Shown piece by piece: positions 8,122 through 24,751 of a stretch of 64,000 nucleotides of DNA. Position 1 is the first letter of the stretch. The number at the start of each line of letters is the position of its first letter. The DNA comes from a virus (lineage: Duplodnaviria; Caudoviricetes). The notes under the pieces were generated by a model, which saw only the letters and a list, made by a program, of their open reading frames with translations, had not been told where the DNA came from and did not search any database. Location: positions 10,080 to 74,079 of IMG/VR virus record IMGVR_UViG_3300022555_000045; one strand, written 5' to 3'. Both the position numbers and the translations under genes were made by a program.

Positions 8122-8230
8122 CATTTGTGTTGACTACCGTAGTAAAAATAGTTTAAAAATAGCAAAAAAGAATAAACAGCTTCTGGGAGAATCTTAATTT
8201 TGTTTGTAAGTCCCATAGGGAGATTTAAAA

Positions 8231-9256: not shown

Positions 9257-12200
9257 ATGATGCTTAAGGGTCTTGGACAGTATCAAGTTACTTCAACCAA
9301 TAATGGAGTTAAGATGACCCCACGTGGAGGCTTAACTACCTCTGAACGTGGACTAGGTTCATCTATGTCCATGACCCGTAGGGAAGTTACTGCTGCAGCA
9401 ACTGGGACAAGTAACTGTGGGCCAGGAGCTTCTGGTGGGGGTGGGGGGTTTGGAATTTCTGGTGGGGGTGTTAACGCCAATTATATTCGTTCCGTAGTTG
9501 AGGATTTTATTCCTCTTGGAAATGCTGACGCTTACCGCCGAATCTACCGCGATATTTATTACCATCAACCGACTGCTGGGTCTGCTGTTGATCTGCTATC
9601 AACACTACCTTGGTCAGATTTCGTTTTAACAGGACTTCCGTCCGCTGATCTTCTTAAGCAATATGCAAAGTCCATTGAAAACCTTAAGATCAAAACTCTT
9701 CTCCCTGAGATGAGCATTGATTATCTGGTAATGGGCACTTTTATTGGTGTACTCAATTTTGATGCTGCTAGTAAAGTTTTCGTCTCTATTGCACCACAAG
9801 ATGTTGAATATTGTACTATTAACCCGGTAGGTGTGTACGGTGAGGACCCTATCATTGACCTTCGTCTACCTCCTGAGCTAATGGAAATGCTTGACAAGTC
9901 TAAAAAGGACCCTCGTTACGATTCTGTTAAAGCTAAGCTTCCAGGGTTCCTAATTAACAATGTTAAGAAAAACGGAGTTATTAAGCTAAACCCGTCTAAC
10001 GTTCTTTATTTACCTCGTAGGACTTTTTCCACGAGCACAGTAGGTGTGTCTTGTTATCGGCGTTTGGTCGGTCTTTATCTGTTGGAAAAGGCGCTTATGC
10101 GCGGATCGATAGAAGCAAGCTATCGTCGGCAACGAGGTATCCTGCACATTGAAGTCGGTGATAGTTTTGATTGGCAGCCTACTCGTGAAGAGCTAAGCAC
10201 TGTTACTCAGATGGTAATTAACGCAGATCTAGATCCAACAGGTGCGGTTATTGCAACTCGCTCTGGGGTCCAGTTCAATGAAGTACGTTGTTTAGGCGGT
10301 AACACTTATGTGCATACCGAAAACGGGTTGATAAAGATTAAAGACTTAGTACCACACAACCCCAAGAAGATGATCGAAGGCACTATGTTACCTTTAGACC
10401 TTCAAGTTAAAGGTATGACTGGTAACTTCGTTTTAGCGACTCATTGGCACTACCAAGGCGTCAAACCTGTTAATAACTACTATACTGATTCCAATATAAA
10501 ATTGACTTGTACCGAGGAGCATAAGTTTTTAACTGTAGGAGAGTACGGTCAACTTGAATCTGCCAAGATAAAGGATATTGTTAAAGATAATCGTTGGCTA
10601 TGTATTGATAAGGCGGGGTTAGACTACAATGAGGTTGGAAAAGACTTGGAACTGAACTTACGTTTTCCAGATATTAAAGCTAGGTTTTTGACTAGAACTA
10701 ACACTGATATAACTTTACCAAAGCGTATGACTCCGCAACTGGCCTATATAATTGGAATTCTCATCAGTGAAGGTTACATTAACAAGCGCGGAGCGTATGT
10801 CAATAATACAGACTTAGAGCTAATTGCTGCTTACAGTGAAGCTATTTTAGATACTTTTGGTATGGAAACTAAAATAGGCGAGGGTTCTCCTATAGGAGAA
10901 GAAGTTGTAATATTAGGTAGACAGCAGACGCGTAAAAAGAAAATCTATCAATGTCGCTTGCATGGTGTTATAGTAGTAGATATTCTAAAACAGTTAGGAT
11001 TGGTTAACACCGCTGAAGTTAACAATCGTGAGAAGTCTCCTTCTTACTATAAGAAGGTTCCTTGGAGTATAATGCAAGCAGACCGTGAATGCAAGATAGC
11101 CTTTTTAGCAGCTTACATAGAAGGTGACGGTTGTATTGGAAAGTCTCCAAACAAGACAAGTGGGACTAAAACGGTCGATATTCGCATAGCTAGTAGGTCG
11201 GTGTATACGCTAAATTCAATAAAAATATTGTTACAAAGTCTTGGGTTTTTATCTAATACCTGTTACGAACCTAGGTATGAGCTAAAATTAACAAGAGCTG
11301 AAGGTTCTAGGTTGTATAACTTAATGTATAAGTATTTGGTACTTCCTTATAAGAAACACCATGTTAAATGTGATGATGTTTCTATGGTAAGGTACGGAAT
11401 ACCAGCTAGCGTATTCGTTTCGGTGTTAAAAGAGCGTAAAATAAAGAGTGCTATAGGTGGGGTGTGGTTTAAAAACGACGAAGGCTCCTCTGTCTTTGTA
11501 GAAGGCCCTGTTGGTAATATTTTTAAACACTACACTGCTGTAAAAGAAGCTATATGCTTACGCTATGAGCGGTTAGACACGGGTGACTATACTAAAGAAT
11601 TATCTATTATTAGGCAGGTTAGTCCAAAACTCTACTTCAATATACTAAAGCTTGCCTCTCTCAAATACAAGTTTGAGAAGGTTGTTAAAGTAACTAAAGC
11701 CAAAGATCAACCAACTTATGATCTTACAATAAATTCTGACTCTGCTCCACTATTTCTTATTGCTGGTGGCGTAGTAACTCATAACTCCGGCTCGGATTTC
11801 TGGAAAATCAGCGATATGAACGAGTTTTTAAATAGTTCATATTTGCGAGCATTAGGGTTAAGCGAGTCTTTACTCTCTGCGGAATCCTCCATTTCGACCT
11901 CTGAAGCTTCCATAAGTTCGTTCCTTGAGAGCCAAAGGGCGTACCGCGATTTGGTAGTACGTAAAGTCTTCACTAACCGGATATTCCCAGCTATTGCCGT
12001 ATCGAACTCATTCCTACGTACTAAAGCGGAAGAACGTAAGGAAGTAGCAGGATCATTAAATCATAATCCAGTAATGATTGACGGTAGGTACCGTGAAGTA
12101 CTGGCCTCAAACGGTGAGAAGTCCTACGAGGTAACGTGCGACGGTGAGATTAAATCTTATCAAAATGAAGACTTGACTCAGTATTATATGCCGCGTATAC

Positions 12201-18719: not shown

Positions 18720-20084
18720 ATGCCAGTCTACGCTAATCATGCCAAGGAACTACTTTTTCTTAAAGCTAGGAAAGAAGGTAGGATAATTGTTAACAGGGAC
18801 GGTACCGTCGATACGCCAGATAAAAAGAATATAGGGCGTAAAGACAAAGACGGTTACGTTGTAATAACTTTAACAATTAACGGAGCTACTAAGAACATAC
18901 GGCGCGGTCGTCTAGTTTATTTAGTCTATATTGACAAAAACCTTGATCCTGTTTTGCAAATTAACCATAAGAACGGGATCAAGGATGATGATTGTGTAGA
19001 AAACATTGAGTCTATGACTGCTAGAGATAATATCTTACACGCTCATAGGACAGGTTTAGCCGACAATCGTCGTGCTCATGATGTAACCGACGATGCTACA
19101 GCTGCTAAGATTAGGAAAGTTTACTCTTACGGTTTTGACACATACGAGTCGGTTGGTAAGAAGTTTGGTGTGTCCGCAGGAGTAGTTGGACCTATAATTA
19201 AAAATGAACACTATATTGATCCTAACTACGATCCCTCTATTACCGCTGATATACGTAGTGGACGCTCCTTTGTTGACGAACAAGAGATGTACGATATGTA
19301 CATTTCTGGTAATTTCACCCACGCCGAGATAGGCAAGAAGTTTGGTGTTAGCACCAGAATAACACAGCGTGTAATTAACGCTTTTAACGCTGCTAAAGAG
19401 TCTTTTAACACTTCATTTAAACCTAACGACTTAGCTACGTGTAAGCATAATCGTAAGTTCACTGATGATGAGGTTCGTTACATTTTTAAACTTATAAATA
19501 CTAATAGGTATACCGATAAAGAAATTGGTGCTATGGTAGGCGTGTCTCGTCAAACCATTGGTGACTTACGTCTACGCAATACGTATAAATACGTTGATCT
19601 GTCTATTGAACCTCCTCGTACTATCGACTTGGTTAACCTAAAAAAGAAAATGTCAGCTACTAATATTGACAGGGATAAAGACGATCCCTTACCTGCGTGC
19701 CGAAAGTTCACTGACGACGAGATATACGATATTCTTGATCTGTACGCTACTGGTAAGTATGCCCATAGGAAAATTGGTGCTCTATACGGAGTGTCGTGCC
19801 CTACTATCGGTGCTATACTTCGTGGACAGTCTTACGCGCACCTCGTTTCTAACTATGTGCCAGGTTCTAGAAAGACTACTAATTCAAAACTACCGGAAGT
19901 TTTAGCACTGTTTTCTATGCCTATTAAGCAAACTACCCCTGTTAAATCTGTAACGAAAACTGCAAACGTCACTAAAATCGAGTCCAAGAGTAATAGGCAA
20001 GTTAAGCCTATTAAGACGGCTAAATCTGCCAAGTCAAGTAAAAATCCAGGAAAGGTTCTTAAACTCAAGAATCTTTTCGGTTAG
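18720..20084 (+). CDS. HNH homing endonuclease with multiple C-terminal HTH repeats
   Basis: INHKNGIKDDDCVENIESMTARDN (I-HmuI-like HNH), followed by repeats such as RKFTDDEV...EIGAMVGVSRQTI and RKFTDDEI...KIGALYGVSCPTI. Confidence 0.8.
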   Translation: MPVYANHAKELLFLKARKEGRIIVNRDGTVDTPDKKNIGRKDKDGYVVITLTINGATKNIRRGRLVYLVYIDKNLDPVLQINHKNGIKDDDCVENIESMTARDNILHAHRTGLADNRRAHDVTDDATAAKIRKVYSYGFDTYESVGKKFGVSAGVVGPIIKNEHYIDPNYDPSITADIRSGRSFVDEQEMYDMYISGNFTHAEIGKKFGVSTRITQRVINAFNAAKESFNTSFKPNDLATCKHNRKFTDDEVRYIFKLINTNRYTDKEIGAMVGVSRQTIGDLRLRNTYKYVDLSIEPPRTIDLVNLKKKMSATNIDRDKDDPLPACRKFTDDEIYDILDLYATGKYAHRKIGALYGVSCPTIGAILRGQSYAHLVSNYVPGSRKTTNSKLPEVLALFSMPIKQTTPVKSVTKTANVTKIESKSNRQVKPIKTAKSAKSSKNPGKVLKLKNLFG

Positions 20085-20299
20085 AAAATTTTAGCACTAA
20101 TAACAGGAAAATTTTTTGGGTTAATCTTAATTTTGAGTAATCCAGTTTTCTAAAAGTTATTTCGTGTTTTAAGATTTTCTAAAACCCTACGTAAATTCTA
20201 CCACTAAGTTGTCCTAGTTACCCTACTAAACACAGCACAATAACCCACTCTCATCAAGATGATTTATAATCAAAAATTGGAATCATCTTAATTTTGATA

Positions 20300-20630
20300 A
20301 TAGAGTTCCTAAGGAGTCTTTAGGATCCTCCGACTCCACCCGATAGGTTAGTAAGTCCTTTCCTTGAGGTATGAGGGGATCAGACCACGTGAATGAAAGA
20401 TTCCGTAGACGATACTGAAGAATATATAGGCACCGTAGGTTGTCGCCTCAGACCTACGCTCTGCGGTTGGGGACTAAACAGTCGTATAAGGTGTTAAGGA
20501 CAGTGAACCCAGCTCAAAACCTTCGGATATCAGGTCGAGAGGAAGACCAAAACCAAGGACAACTTGGCGGAGGCACAACAGTTGACACACTGCTAGGCTT
20601 CGTTTCTTGTAGCCTATACAAAGTGTCGCC
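20300..20630 (+). ncRNA. omega-RNA (HEARO-like) with 5' guide
   Basis: The conserved HEARO core is recognisable: gaatatataggcaccgtaggttgtcgcctcagacctacgctctgcgg...taaacag...gacagtg...aaaacc...gtcgagagg. P1 helix gatcctc (20324) pairs with ggggatc (20375-20381). Exact ends are inferred. Confidence 0.82.
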
Positions 20631-22002
20631 CTAAGAAAGTTATTACCATGGCTGAAGTCAAAGAATCTAAACCAAAGAAACCACCTGTTATCGTTTTCGT
20701 GTTAAATGTGAACGGTAAACCTCTGATGCCTTGCAAATCCCAAACTGCTAGACATCTCCTGAAAGACGGTAAAGCTAAAGTTGTTTCCAAGTTACCTTTC
20801 ACTATCAAACTGCTACAACCTACCACTAACTATACCCAGCCTATCTCTGCTGCTTTGATAGTAAATTCTACTGCGGTTAAGACCGCAGCAGTTAGAATCG
20901 ATTCTGAAGAGTCTACTCCGATTCCTCTCTATGTTTCTGTAACTGTTCTCCGTAATGACATTTCTGGTAAACTAGAGCAACGAGGTAACTATCGTAGAAC
21001 GCGGCGCTCTAGGAAGACACGTTATCGCGAACAACGGTCTAACAACCGAGCTAATTCCTGTAAGAATGGTAAGATACCGCCTTCCATTAGGTCTAAACTA
21101 GAATCTATTGAGCGTATAAAGAAGAAGATTAACCGTCTACTTCCTAACGTTCAGTGGAAAGAGCAGCTTTCCTCCTTCTCCAAGAAACGGTTAGAGAACC
21201 CTAAGTCTAAAAACTGGAAGACCGCTAACGATAATAATTCTGACTGGCTTAACATTAAAGGTGCAGTGTTAGCTAGAGACAGTTACCGTTGTCAGATGGT
21301 AAAAGGCGGCAAGCATTCTCACGAGCTTCACGTTCACCACAAGATTCCTAGGTCAGACGGCGGTACTAATGAGTTAGATAACCTTATTACTGCTTGTAAG
21401 GATCACCACGTAGCCTATCATAAAGGTAAGTTGAAGTACAACGGTACTAGAGTTTCTACTAAACGTACGACCCATATGGATATAATACGGTCTCAGAGAA
21501 TTAAGAAAGGTTGTAAACAAACCTTCGGTTACCTTACCAAAAAGAAGAGGATTAAGTGGGAAGTAGAAGGTGCTGATCACGACGCCATCCTAGCTGCTTG
21601 TGGCTTGAAGAATCATAAGCCTGAACTGAACTATGTTACCTATCAGGAACGTCATGTTGCTCACGGGGATTATCAACAGACGTGGGGTAAACACTCAGAG
21701 AAGGTGTATCAAACAGGAAAATTGTTTGACTTACGGAAGTTTGATCTAGTTAGAATAATGTATAAAGGCAATCTCTTAACTGGCTTTGTTAAAGGCAAGC
21801 GCGCTACAGGTTATTTTGATATAATGGGAATAGACAATAAGACTATTCTTACTAAAGAGGGTAGAAAACTTAGCGGAGTTAATGTTAAAAAATACAGCGT
21901 TAGGTTACAAGCTAGGTCAACTACTTTGATTCAACCATTAGCATAAGAAAGGGTCGCTTTATTCTTCACTAAAAGTGTTGAAGTATATAGCGATAAACAT
22001 TA
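20324..22002 (+). mobile_element. Non-autonomous IS200/IS605-family IscB (OMEGA) element
   Basis: HEARO/omega-RNA, then iscB, then a right-end hairpin (tcgct...cactaaaagtg...agcga, 21954-21993), followed by ATGA. No tnpA in the window. Confidence 0.8.
20648..21946 (+). CDS. iscB: IscB RNA-guided nuclease, RuvC-inactivated variant
   Basis: PLMP domain (VFVLNVNGKPLMPC), Arg-rich bridge helix (QRGNYRRTRRSRKTRYR) and HNH (LHVHHKIPRSDGGTNELDNLITACKDHHVAYH). RuvC-I reads ISAALIVNS instead of LGxDxGS. Confidence 0.9.
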   Translation: MAEVKESKPKKPPVIVFVLNVNGKPLMPCKSQTARHLLKDGKAKVVSKLPFTIKLLQPTTNYTQPISAALIVNSTAVKTAAVRIDSEESTPIPLYVSVTVLRNDISGKLEQRGNYRRTRRSRKTRYREQRSNNRANSCKNGKIPPSIRSKLESIERIKKKINRLLPNVQWKEQLSSFSKKRLENPKSKNWKTANDNNSDWLNIKGAVLARDSYRCQMVKGGKHSHELHVHHKIPRSDGGTNELDNLITACKDHHVAYHKGKLKYNGTRVSTKRTTHMDIIRSQRIKKGCKQTFGYLTKKKRIKWEVEGADHDAILAACGLKNHKPELNYVTYQERHVAHGDYQQTWGKHSEKVYQTGKLFDLRKFDLVRIMYKGNLLTGFVKGKRATGYFDIMGIDNKTILTKEGRKLSGVNVKKYSVRLQARSTTLIQPLA

Positions 22003-23961
22003 ATGAAGTTTGAAACCACTGCTGCCATTCTGGCATCTGCTGACAGGCCGGTGCTAGCAGGGCATGACAAGGGGCAACTCCGTAGCGTTACGCTTGCCCT
22101 TTTACATTGCTCTGATTGTGATACTAACATCCTTACAAACTACTCTCTACATGCAGGTTGTGTAGCTTGTGGAAGTACTTTAATTCCGTCAGAATCGATT
22201 GTCCAGAAAGATACCGCTGGCAATCCACTTACTGATAAAGACGGTGATACAGTAATTGCTACCATCGACGTTGATAAGTCGGCTTTAGCTAACTTAGAAA
22301 TCGTCGCTACTTGCACAGAGTGTGATACTACTTTCCGTAGCGATGCAGTATTTGCGTCGTCCCTTTCTAACGAGCAGATTTATTGCCCAGTATGCTCTTC
22401 AGTTTTGGAGATCGCTGCTGAAGCTACTCCTGATGCCACCCCAGAAGCAGCACCTGCTGAAGAAGAGGCTCCCGCAGAACCTTTGAACGACAACGCAGGT
22501 GATGAACCTTCTACTGCTATGACTGATGATGACGTTAAGGCTGACGGTCAGTTGATTACTTCTAACGCTAAGCACACTAAAGAGCATCACGATAAGCACA
22601 AGCCTGAACACAAGGCTGAAGAGCCAAGTGAAAAGAAGCCTGATCATAAAGCCGAGCACGAGGAAAAGAAGCCGGAACACAAGCCAGAAGATAAGAAGGT
22701 TGAAAAGACTGAAGAAGTTAAAGCAACCTCTGAAACCCCAGTTGTTGAAGACGAAGGTCTGAAAGACACTGGCGCTACTGGACCCAAGGTTGTTAAGATT
22801 ACAGCCAACGAACTTCTTGAAGCCCCGAAGGCTGCCGAGCACAAGCACGATGAAAAGTGTGAAGGTAAAGGATGCAAAGACGTGACCGCTGCTGAAGATG
22901 CACCCAAAGCTGACGAGACTAAAGCAGAAGACACCAAGACTGACGCTAAAGGTGATGAAGGTTCTGAAGAGCATCACAAGAAGCACCACGACAAGCACAA
23001 AGAGCATGCTAAACACGAACATAAAGAGCATGCTAAACACGAACATAAAGAGCATGCTAAACACGAGCACAAGAAGCACGCTGAAAAGACTGACGACGAG
23101 TCTGCGGAAGCCACTAAGAAGACAGACGAAGCTCCCAAGGCTGAAGAGACCAAGGAAGTTAAGGCTATTCTTGAGGTTGACGCTTCGGTAATGTTGCTTG
23201 GTGGTAATGCTACTAGCTACAACTTTGTTATGTCAAGTGCTGATAAACCCACTTGGTTCTTGTTTGCTGACAATCGTCCAGTTGCTTGGTCAGATAAGAC
23301 TGCCGTATCTGCTAACTTAGCTAAGCATTATGACAGTCAAGCTTTTGGTAAAGCGTTTGCTGCCGCTGCTGCAGACGGTATTACTCCCGAGCTTATTAAG
23401 GAATTTGGTCTAGCTGCTTCAACAATTCGGTTTGAAACCGACGAAGTTACCGCTTGTGCTATTAAGACTGCGGTAGAAGCTAAGACTAAAGAACTTAATG
23501 ATCGGTTAGTACAGGTTAAGTCATCTTTTGAACAGGCTGTTGGTATTGCTGCCGTTGGTGTTAACAAGAACTTCTTTGCAGACGCTCCAAATACTCTGCG
23601 TAAGGCTCTTGTTAGTGTTCTTAGTAGCATTAACGTCAATCATCCTGAACACCTAGTTGATTCAGTACTTGCTCAGCACGGTCAGGATTATCTGAAGGCT
23701 ATTATTGCTAAGGCAATGGACCTACAGACTAAATCACCTGATATGCTTAATGAATACGCTAATTTAGTTGAGTCAGCACCGTACACTTCTGGCGTTGTTT
23801 CTACTCCGTCCAGTGCTGGTGAACGTCATGCTAACGAATTAGCCGCTGGTAGCATGCCTCTTTCAGTCTCTGCCTCTCTGATGGAAGACAAGCCCGTTGC
23901 TCCACAGGACAATATTCGTCGGTTGTTCAAGGACATTGGCCGTACCCCTCGTCGTATTTAA
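22003..23961 (+). CDS. Probable capsid scaffold protein with N-terminal Zn fingers and a His/Lys/Glu-rich linker
   Basis: Located between the protease and capsid genes; four CxxC pairs, a charged low-complexity middle and a helical C-terminus. Confidence 0.7.
   Translation: MKFETTAAILASADRPVLAGHDKGQLRSVTLALLHCSDCDTNILTNYSLHAGCVACGSTLIPSESIVQKDTAGNPLTDKDGDTVIATIDVDKSALANLEIVATCTECDTTFRSDAVFASSLSNEQIYCPVCSSVLEIAAEATPDATPEAAPAEEEAPAEPLNDNAGDEPSTAMTDDDVKADGQLITSNAKHTKEHHDKHKPEHKAEEPSEKKPDHKAEHEEKKPEHKPEDKKVEKTEEVKATSETPVVEDEGLKDTGATGPKVVKITANELLEAPKAAEHKHDEKCEGKGCKDVTAAEDAPKADETKAEDTKTDAKGDEGSEEHHKKHHDKHKEHAKHEHKEHAKHEHKEHAKHEHKKHAEKTDDESAEATKKTDEAPKAEETKEVKAILEVDASVMLLGGNATSYNFVMSSADKPTWFLFADNRPVAWSDKTAVSANLAKHYDSQAFGKAFAAAAADGITPELIKEFGLAASTIRFETDEVTACAIKTAVEAKTKELNDRLVQVKSSFEQAVGIAAVGVNKNFFADAPNTLRKALVSVLSSINVNHPEHLVDSVLAQHGQDYLKAIIAKAMDLQTKSPDMLNEYANLVESAPYTSGVVSTPSSAGERHANELAAGSMPLSVSASLMEDKPVAPQDNIRRLFKDIGRTPRRI
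22999..23070 (+). repeat. 24-bp coding tandem repeat x3 (KEHAKHEH)
   Basis: aaagagcatgctaaacacgaacat repeated three times, the last copy with two substitutions. Confidence 0.9.
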
Positions 23962-24046
23962 TACCCGGTTGGCTTCCAACCACTGATTAGTAATCAACGC
24001 CTCTGGGGTTTTTAAAGAAAACAACCCCGAATTAGGAGACCTTTAG

Positions 24047-24751
24047 ATGTTTGATTTTGCACGTACTCGTATCGAAGCCAGCCGTGAGATCCCTACTTCT
24101 CCTCTTTATCAGATCACTTCTGAAGGCTTGGCCCTGGTTTCTGACCTGTACAATGGTCGTGGTGTAGTTCGTCCGTCATCTGGAACTAACGCCAACGAAA
24201 TCTTTGCCGGTTTCTCACTGGCTCAGAACATTGCCGGTACCGCCGCCATTCAGGTTGAAGACCTGCTTGTTCCTGCTAACGCTCCTTACACTGTTGCTCT
24301 GCAGCAGTCGCCGGACGCCGCTGCTAACACTCTCGTCAAGACTTCAGGTACTGGGGTTCTTACCTACAACGTAGCCGTTGGCGCTGGTCAGTTCAATCTG
24401 GTCAACAACGTTGTTACTTTCAACGCCGCTCAGGCTGGTCAGTCAGTTAAGGTTGTTTATCGTTATAACCTTTCAGCCCTCGCTGCTGAAATGCTGTATG
24501 GCGATCAGCCGATTGGTAAGACTGCCGCTTCTATTCTCAATTCAGTTTCTGTTATTACTAAGGGTGTTGTTTTCACTGACAATTACAACACTTCTGACGA
24601 TTATTCTACTGCAGTTGATGGTTCAGTTCCGGTCATCGCTGGAGCCAACGGACAGATTCAGCTTGGTGGGACAGGCGCTCGGGTCACCGGTCGTATCGTT
24701 CACGTTCCTACTGCTGACGTTCCTTTCCTTGGCGTTTACATTAACGTCTAA
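24047..24751 (+). CDS. Head structural / capsid decoration protein
   Basis: Beta-rich 234-aa protein immediately upstream of the major capsid gene; SD aggag. Confidence 0.6.
   Translation: MFDFARTRIEASREIPTSPLYQITSEGLALVSDLYNGRGVVRPSSGTNANEIFAGFSLAQNIAGTAAIQVEDLLVPANAPYTVALQQSPDAAANTLVKTSGTGVLTYNVAVGAGQFNLVNNVVTFNAAQAGQSVKVVYRYNLSALAAEMLYGDQPIGKTAASILNSVSVITKGVVFTDNYNTSDDYSTAVDGSVPVIAGANGQIQLGGTGARVTGRIVHVPTADVPFLGVYINV

Follow-up and report, generated by a model that had tools for sequence, protein, structure and literature searches.

Cas9 descends from the compact protein IscB. In canonical OMEGA systems (short for obligate mobile element-guided activity), of which OgeuIscB and GstIscB of ISGst5 are examples, the protein has the domain order PLMP, split RuvC, bridge helix, HNH and TAM-interacting domain (TID; TAM, target-adjacent motif), and a HEARO RNA located upstream carries a 5′ guide derived from the flank. 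GstIscB is inactivated by combining D87A at the RuvC-I Asp with H238A/H239A at the HNH His pair, and point mutations in the nuclease domains abolished activity (Meers et al.). IsrB, the known natural nickase of this group, has no HNH domain, and its nick falls in the non-target strand. IshB, from Altae-Tran et al. 2021 (summary in PMC11610941), consists of PLMP and HNH in ~180 aa, with no RuvC fold. TldR is a TnpB-like, nuclease-dead repressor in which no nuclease is left and whose guides match conserved promoters. Among DNA-reading proteins, phages carry nicking HNH homing endonucleases of the I-HmuI type; the single-strand nick that these make has been proposed as the driver of homing and of marker exclusion. 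Here we use computational analysis to describe the anatomy, residue changes, domain-specific conservation, clade kinship, insertion site and fixation of an IscB element in IMGVR_UViG_3300022555_000045, a 74-kb virus contig of which positions 10,080 to 74,079 (64,000 nt) form the window analysed. The initial annotation of this stretch had proposed a dead RuvC and a catalytically complete HNH within one IscB/omega-RNA unit, and residue comparison with ~240 relatives bears this out.

The window locus resembles canonical IscB/OMEGA systems in its domain order, its fold, the HEARO RNA upstream of the gene and its putative flank-derived guide. It differs in that the RuvC Asp and Glu are replaced, that neither TnpA nor the matching subterminal hairpins of an IS200/IS605-type (ISC) transposon were found in the 74-kb record, and that the element is fixed in a phage late operon. 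With IsrB, a natural single-site OMEGA nickase, it shares a related omega RNA and fold (match to 8dmb); IsrB lacks the HNH domain, whereas the window IscB has one recognised by Pfam and combines it with a dead RuvC. As in IshB, HNH would be the sole nuclease site, but the RuvC fold, bridge helix and TID that IshB lacks are all kept as a scaffold in the 432-aa window protein. TldR, too, is guided by RNA, derives from a transposon and has its RuvC inactivated; the window IscB differs from it by an intact second nuclease site and a flank guide. The I-HmuI-type endonucleases are comparable as a source of phage-borne HNH nicks, with DNA read by the protein in their case and, as proposed here, by a guide RNA in the window IscB. 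A clade of RuvC-dead phage IscBs, treated below, shares the loss of the RuvC-I Asp, an intact HNH, nine derived residues, an upstream omega RNA and location on viral contigs. What is new here is a deep, divergent and fixed RuvC-dead IscB with a readable insertion site; IscB, IsrB, IshB and TldR are already known.

The iscB gene is an uninterrupted open reading frame (ORF) of 432 codons, as annotated (Table 1), and its product is confirmed as an intact IscB with a confidently predicted fold. Pfam RRXRR (PF14239, 1.1e-38) spans residues 16–191, HNH (PF01844) matches at 6.3e-9, and comparison with PDB sequences returns IscB and IsrB at e-21 to e-11. The AlphaFold2 model, built with 86 homologues, has a predicted local distance difference test score (pLDDT) of 89.3 and a predicted template modelling score (pTM) of 0.87. 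Its top Foldseek matches are IscB/IsrB complexes (E 3e-21 to 1e-14), including the IscB structures 8csz, 9liq, 9k30, 7utn and 7xht. The protein has the PLMP domain, the arginine-rich bridge helix, the split RuvC fold with inserted HNH and the C-terminal TID of an IscB. Every motif quoted in the initial annotation is present: GKPLMPC (residues 23–29), the RRxRR bridge helix, ISAALIVNS (66–74), WKEQLSSFS (170–178), CQMV (215–218), HVHH (228–231), DNL (244–246), CKDH (250–253), AYH (256–258) and GADHDA (308–313).

We then compared the catalytic positions with those of 119 close and ~120 more distant relatives. Position 71 in RuvC-I is Asp in 230 of 241 relatives and Ile in the window IscB, and position 173 in RuvC-II, a Glu in 238 of 242, has become Gln. 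With two of the metal-binding carboxylates gone, the RuvC site should be inactive, judging from the residues at these positions. The annotated erosion of RuvC stands for the first two segments, whose carboxylates are replaced by Ile71, Gln173 and Ser178. The claimed loss of the RuvC-III His is ambiguous: four alignments disagree on the placement of His311/Asp312 (His to Asp with Asp to Ala; His kept with His and Asp adjacent; or His to Asp with Asp kept), and it is the canonical HxxD spacing that is clearly gone. Acidic and His residues do lie near RuvC-III (DHD), and Glu172 sits beside the lost Glu, so that a rewired RuvC (using, for example, Asp310, His311, Asp312 and Glu172) in a fully active double-strand nuclease can be envisaged. 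Such an enzyme is highly improbable: a hydrophobic Ile occupies the RuvC-I Asp position, the motif around it reads ALIVNS instead of GMDTGS, Ser stands in place of the SFD Asp, and RuvC-II is for the most part deleted in the sister clade.

The HNH site, by comparison with the same relatives, is catalytically complete (His230-His231, Asn245 and His258), and its zinc ligands are C215, H223 (of KHS), C250 and H253. Two zinc cysteines had been reported as changed. They are indeed substituted, but this is not erosion, since both variant forms occur in canonical or active IscBs. The C-x-x-V form with the KHS His is also found in the RuvC-intact relatives P0108, P0299, P0317 and P0333, and the CxxHH form is also that of OgeuIscB, an active enzyme with solved structures. 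With HNH kept and RuvC dead, the window IscB should nick the target strand.

The window protein is not unique in its RuvC loss, which is seen in ~30 protein clusters on phage-like contigs. A 50%-cluster representative, P0123, has the same RuvC-I Asp-to-Ile change, and a search with it returned ~30 clusters at 90% identity. The resulting RuvC-dead clade comprises clusters P0123, P0270–P0297 and P0302, with loci L003, L005, L006a, L016 and L018. In this clade the RuvC-I Asp is Ile, Val or Thr, the RuvC-III His is lost, most of RuvC-II (~10–25 residues) is deleted, and all HNH catalytic and zinc residues are kept. The genes are located on viral or phage-like contigs and are under purifying selection, with pairwise ratios of non-synonymous to synonymous substitution rates (dN/dS) of 0.19–0.29 where dS is unsaturated. 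A HEARO RNA lies upstream in four clade loci (99–113 bits in the complete L005, L006a and L016; 78.9 bits in the 5′-truncated L003); the L018 contig begins at the iscB gene, with the omega RNA region outside it. The guides of the clade loci differ, and each is the local flank. In L006a and L016, the two loci checked, the distal end has a hairpin similar to the 5′ hairpin of the omega RNA, and L005 lies near a TnpA (Y1 transposase) gene.

In a maximum-likelihood tree the window IscB is sister to the RuvC-dead clade (ultrafast bootstrap 83, Shimodaira–Hasegawa-like approximate likelihood ratio test (SH-aLRT) 73; 100/99 for the clade itself). Nine derived residues (I105, W200, L201, E226, L243, K251, V255, Y257 and R281) are common to the window IscB and at least 60% of the clade. 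In 100 canonical relatives these residues have frequencies of 10% or less, seven of them 0–1%; they lie outside the RuvC motifs and span positions 105–281. The losses of conserved residues in the window IscB also overlap those of the clade (odds ratio 7.9, Fisher p 5e-8). The window protein keeps its RuvC-II length and 36/42 conserved TID residues, against 17/42 in the more diverged clade TID. On these sequence comparisons, it is probably the deepest known branch of the RuvC-dead lineage, one that escaped the RuvC-II deletion. A separate small lineage (P0139 and P0266) has Lys at the RuvC-I Asp and has lost the RuvC-III His, with the RuvC-II Glu and HNH kept, suggesting that RuvC loss arose more than once. 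Of 80 IscB loci taken as a sample from IMG/VR, 75 score as fully canonical and 3 more differ trivially; IscB is thus common in phages and the RuvC-dead form a minority.

Three loci related to this clade are of separate interest. In L006, a phage-like contig, a RuvC-dead and a canonical IscB (the pair at 10001–11083 and 19051–20181) lie 8 kb apart, are 35% identical and have a HEARO RNA each (100 and 104 bits). In L016 (2602–2674), an element of the RuvC-dead clade lies 27 nt downstream of a tRNA gene, with a guide that covers the spacer directly past the tRNA. On the IMG/VR contig L017, a RuvC-dead-clade IscB has a single in-frame TAA at ~679, at the conserved GYKQ position, which may reflect a recent pseudogene, a sequencing error or recoding.

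The covariance-model search that had been suggested as a check places a HEARO match directly upstream of the window iscB on the same strand (Table 1), at a score below the Rfam gathering score of 83. The three helices quoted at the outset do pair, namely P1 (GAUCCUC/GGGGAUC), the central helix (GAUACUGAAG/CUUCGGAUAUC) and a hairpin (CCGUAGGU/ACCUACG), and the pseudoknot GACC/GGUC is retained. Minimum free energy folding of 20324–20647 is uninformative (z = -1.08), and the covariance-model match is the relevant evidence. By analogy with IscB structures, the region between this match and iscB may also belong to the omega RNA.

The flanks of the element suggest where it entered. Reading downstream, the promoter-like motif ATCTTAATTTTG is followed by 13 nt, AAGGAG, TCTTTAG(G) and the first omega-RNA helix. 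At the other end, the iscB stop is followed after 56 nt by the ATG of a scaffold-like gene without its own Shine-Dalgarno (SD) sequence. The same layout occurs at 8191 (motif, 13 nt, AGGGAG, 8 nt, ATG), and the gene at 24047 is preceded by AGGAGACCTTTAG-ATG, a ribosome-binding site (RBS)-spacer form like that of the presumed guide. Copies of the motif, exact or with up to 2 changes, lie 24–64 nt upstream of + strand ORFs at 2994, 7339, 8191, 29055, 32484, 44236 and 59422, a distribution consistent with a promoter role. The simplest reading of this arrangement is that the RBS and the ATG of the scaffold-like gene were parted by the insertion of an element of 1.68 kb (20324–22002, to within about a base). 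If so, the omega RNA would be made from the late promoter of the scaffold gene, the guide would be the RBS region, roughly CCTAAGGAGTCTTTAG, and RBS-spacer-ATGAAG would be the sequence of the empty allele, in which the TAM side is that of ATGAAG. Both the guide length and the assignment of the TAM to the ATGAAG side are putative. No convincing second guide target with up to 3 mismatches was found in the 74 kb, the nearest matches sharing the SD core alone.

The recurrent intergenic motif can be written (A/T)(T/A)CTTAATTTT(G/A/T) and is a candidate phage late promoter. A second exact copy, ATCTTAATTTTGA, at 20124 is followed by ~150 nt without an ORF or Rfam match, up to the copy at 20285 (20124–20284). 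The copies form a 21-nt repeat, TTGG..ATCTTAATTTTGA, which suggests a duplication tied to one of the insertions.

Table 1 Features of the IscB element and its neighbourhood in the window (positions of the 64,000-nt stretch).
Feature	Position	Strand	Description	Evidence
Portal gene, 1153 aa	9257–12718		Intein with LAGLIDADG homing-endonuclease domain, ~residues 360–843	PF14528 2.7e-14; Intein_splicing weak
Free-standing HNH homing endonuclease	18720–20084		Several repeated helix-turn-helix modules; between prohead protease and IscB element	phrog_59 3e-33
Promoter-like phage motif ATCTTAATTTTG	20285–20296	+	27 nt upstream of omega-RNA scaffold; second exact copy at 20124–20135	
Presumed guide, ~16 nt, CCTAAGGAGTCTTTAG[G]	20308–20324	+	Shine-Dalgarno and spacer; directly 5′ of first omega-RNA helix	
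Omega RNA core (HEARO)	20324–20550	+	Full model 1–211, matched at 20325–20550	Rfam RF02033, 65.5 bits, E 2.6e-12
Putative omega-RNA 3′ extension and iscB leader	20551–20647	+	Further hairpins CCAAG/CUUGG, UAGGCU/AGCCUA, GACAC/GUGUC	Sequence and fold
iscB ORF, 432 aa, uninterrupted	20648–21946	+	PLMP domain, RuvC-I/II/III segments (predicted dead), bridge helix, intact HNH, TID	
RuvC-I motif ISAALIVNS	20843–20869	+	Catalytic Asp to Ile71	Relatives GMDTGS, window ALIVNS
RuvC-II motif WKEQLSSFS	21155–21181	+	Glu to Gln173, SFD Asp to Ser178	Relatives WKVELASFD
HNH core	21284–21421	+	Cys215, His223 (of KHS), His230-His231, Asn245, Cys250, His253-His254, His258 in place	
RuvC-III motif GADHDA	21569–21586	+	Canonical HxxD spacing gone	Relatives K-T-H-x-x-D-A
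TAM-interacting domain	21653–21943	+	36/42 family-conserved residues kept	
Distal element end, 56 nt	21947–22002	+	No hairpin like the omega-RNA 5′ hairpin; no SD for next gene	
Scaffold-like head gene	22003–23961	+	RBS and ATG split by IscB element	Position between protease and head proteins

The best reading of this locus, to which we give about an even chance, is an RNA-guided HNH target-strand nickase serving as a homing or exclusion element. Target-strand nicking is the most economical function because the guide-binding, TAM-reading and HNH parts are conserved and the RuvC carboxylates are gone. We envisage that an OMEGA element (IscB and omega RNA) entered a jumbo phage at the head-scaffold gene, precisely between RBS and ATG, where it is now fixed and would be transcribed from the late promoter of that gene. 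The ribonucleoprotein (RNP), if formed, would open an R-loop on DNA matching the ~16-nt guide beside a TAM, and HNH would cut the target strand alone. A related phage without the element would offer the matching DNA at the RBS-ATG junction of its scaffold gene, which is uninterrupted there. A nick in a replicating, recombination-prone phage genome may suffice to trigger repair from the element-bearing genome, with homing and co-conversion of head genes, or a handicap to a co-infecting rival, as the outcome. Homing and marker exclusion driven by a nick are likewise proposed for the HNH homing endonucleases with nicking activity that occur in SPO1-type phages. RNP formation, nicking, the TAM and homing are all predictions of this model.

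The element is fixed in the phage population. Public runs containing this stretch come from lake and freshwater metagenomes of three studies (2016–2020), with no RNA run among those listed; several ENA assemblies contribute at least 23 contigs with the same arrangement, and contigs of the 2016 lake study span both element junctions. The copies L004, L096 and L097 are 99.9–100% identical, and the lake runs add one I314V in iscB and, in the adjacent endonuclease gene, one synonymous substitution. No contig joining across the element was found in four lake runs. A pattern search for the empty site (guide plus ATGAAGTT) gave a single IMG/VR hit, L106, which was treated as chance because it is antisense within a 1680-aa ORF. 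For the RuvC-dead clade locus L016, an equivalent search returned the locus itself as the sole match. Related phages in IMG/VR reached through the prohead protease have 40–42% identity, are GC-rich and do not have a comparable gene order, and the contigs of 54%-identical protease relatives end at the protease.

Several observations weigh against a homing nickase. No empty allele of the window element was found in IMG/VR, in Joint Genome Institute (JGI) metagenome contigs or in the four lake runs. The 74-kb record, about a third of the genome, gave no match to TnpA (PF01797), and the element end has no recognisable distal repeat of the omega-RNA 5′ hairpin or other transposon hairpin. Among 14 complete phage IscB loci, the window omega RNA has the lowest HEARO score (65.5 bits, against 75–123 bits for the other 13 and 99–113 bits for the omega RNAs of the RuvC-dead clade). 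The closest relative is 47% identical, with none above this in libraries of 5.8 billion and 1.8 billion proteins, and single-sequence patterns found no close relatives in IMG/VR. Since this nearest relative is so distant and the phage copies are 99.9–100% identical, dN/dS is not measurable for the window iscB. The sister placement to the RuvC-dead clade is moderately supported, and long-branch attraction or convergence could contribute to it (terminal branch 1.53). Finally, a natural RuvC-inactive IscB is not described, nor are biochemical data on one given, in the full-text literature searched, which does not cover many subscription journals.

Some of these points could be read as the signature of a trapped relic, its nuclease dead or dying and its ORF open just because it lies inside an essential operon, for example because ribosomes that translate iscB carry translation on to the scaffold ATG, which has no SD and lies 56 nt past the iscB stop. 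The low HEARO score, the very long branch and the want of relatives close enough for a purifying-selection signal would fit this, as would the 86 of 206 family-conserved positions that differ in the window IscB, some as insertions or deletions. The substitutions are, however, uneven. Across 180 columns with a conservation of 90% or more among 100 canonical relatives, the window IscB keeps 18/19 residues in PLMP, 24/28 in the bridge helix, 19/27 in HNH and 36/42 in the TID, but 5/14, 11/29 and 9/21 in RuvC-I, RuvC-II and RuvC-III (70–95% against 36–43%). As the RNA-binding, HNH and TAM-reading parts are spared, this is not random decay. The model is confident throughout, an ORF needed for coupling alone would not preserve the catalytic His/Asn or TID residues, and the related RuvC-dead clade is under purifying selection. 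The ORF has, moreover, been maintained along a branch of 1.53 changes per site. We consider the relic quite unlikely, and the selection on iscB proposed in the initial annotation is upheld by the concentration of losses in the RuvC segments, their overlap with those of the clade and the confident fold.

A domesticated RNA-guided DNA binder or regulator of the TldR kind would bind without cutting, for instance to repress or time late or host genes, or to block the scaffold promoter region of a rival. A dead RuvC, a single-copy element fixed in the population for years, a long and fast-evolving branch, the location in a late head operon behind a promoter-like motif, and the apparent immobility as a transposon (no TnpA in the record, no matching distal hairpin) are all compatible with such a role. 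We nevertheless regard it as unlikely. All HNH catalytic residues and zinc ligands are retained and HNH keeps most of its conserved residues, which would be needless in a pure binder; the guide is the flank left by insertion, and no target-like match to it with up to 3 mismatches occurs in the 74 kb, about a third of the genome. Of the two alternatives first put forward, the HNH-only target-strand nickase thus fits best, and the analogy to TldR repressors finds no positive support, with HNH conserved and the guide corresponding to the RBS flank. More speculatively, and with low probability in our judgement, a late-expressed HNH-only or binding-only IscB RNP guided by the scaffold leader could disable or convert the head-gene module of element-less co-infecting relatives, a form of RNA-guided superinfection exclusion, or could tune late genes in the manner of TldR. 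In that event, the nine HNH-region changes common to the RuvC-dead clade would be adaptations to working without RuvC.

The surroundings of the element agree with the jumbo phage capsid operon described in the initial annotation. The portal, the prohead protease, the free-standing HNH homing endonuclease, the scaffold-like gene, a virion protein and the major head protein are the neighbours of iscB. The prohead protease gene is identical to that on a 254-kb contig, which identifies the virus as a jumbo phage; the record itself has a completeness rating of 33%. One IscB and one HEARO RNA are present in the entire 74-kb record. Megablast of 19500–24000 against phage GenBank records gave no match. 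The head module contains three selfish elements, namely the portal intein, the HNH endonuclease and the IscB element. The gene downstream of iscB is a putative scaffold, given its position between the protease and the head proteins; its PHROG match is to one family alone, labelled 'ATPase'. Its product has a long Lys/His/Glu-rich repeat region with KEHAKHEH units, and its length varies by 24 nt among samples (652 aa, against 644 aa in L096).

If the proposed function is correct, a natural, full-body IscB that works through HNH alone would be the missing mirror image of IsrB, a nickase of the target strand. Such natural nickase scaffolds, and the HNH-region substitutions that accompany RuvC loss, may be of interest for engineering IscB nickases for base editing. 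The locus also illustrates clearly how an element can be placed between the RBS of a gene and its start codon. In terms of phage biology, the homing-element cluster of the head module gains an RNA-guided member, next to the intein and the free-standing HNH endonuclease, and the locus would imply that an RNA-guided selfish element needs no more than a single nick to persist in phages.

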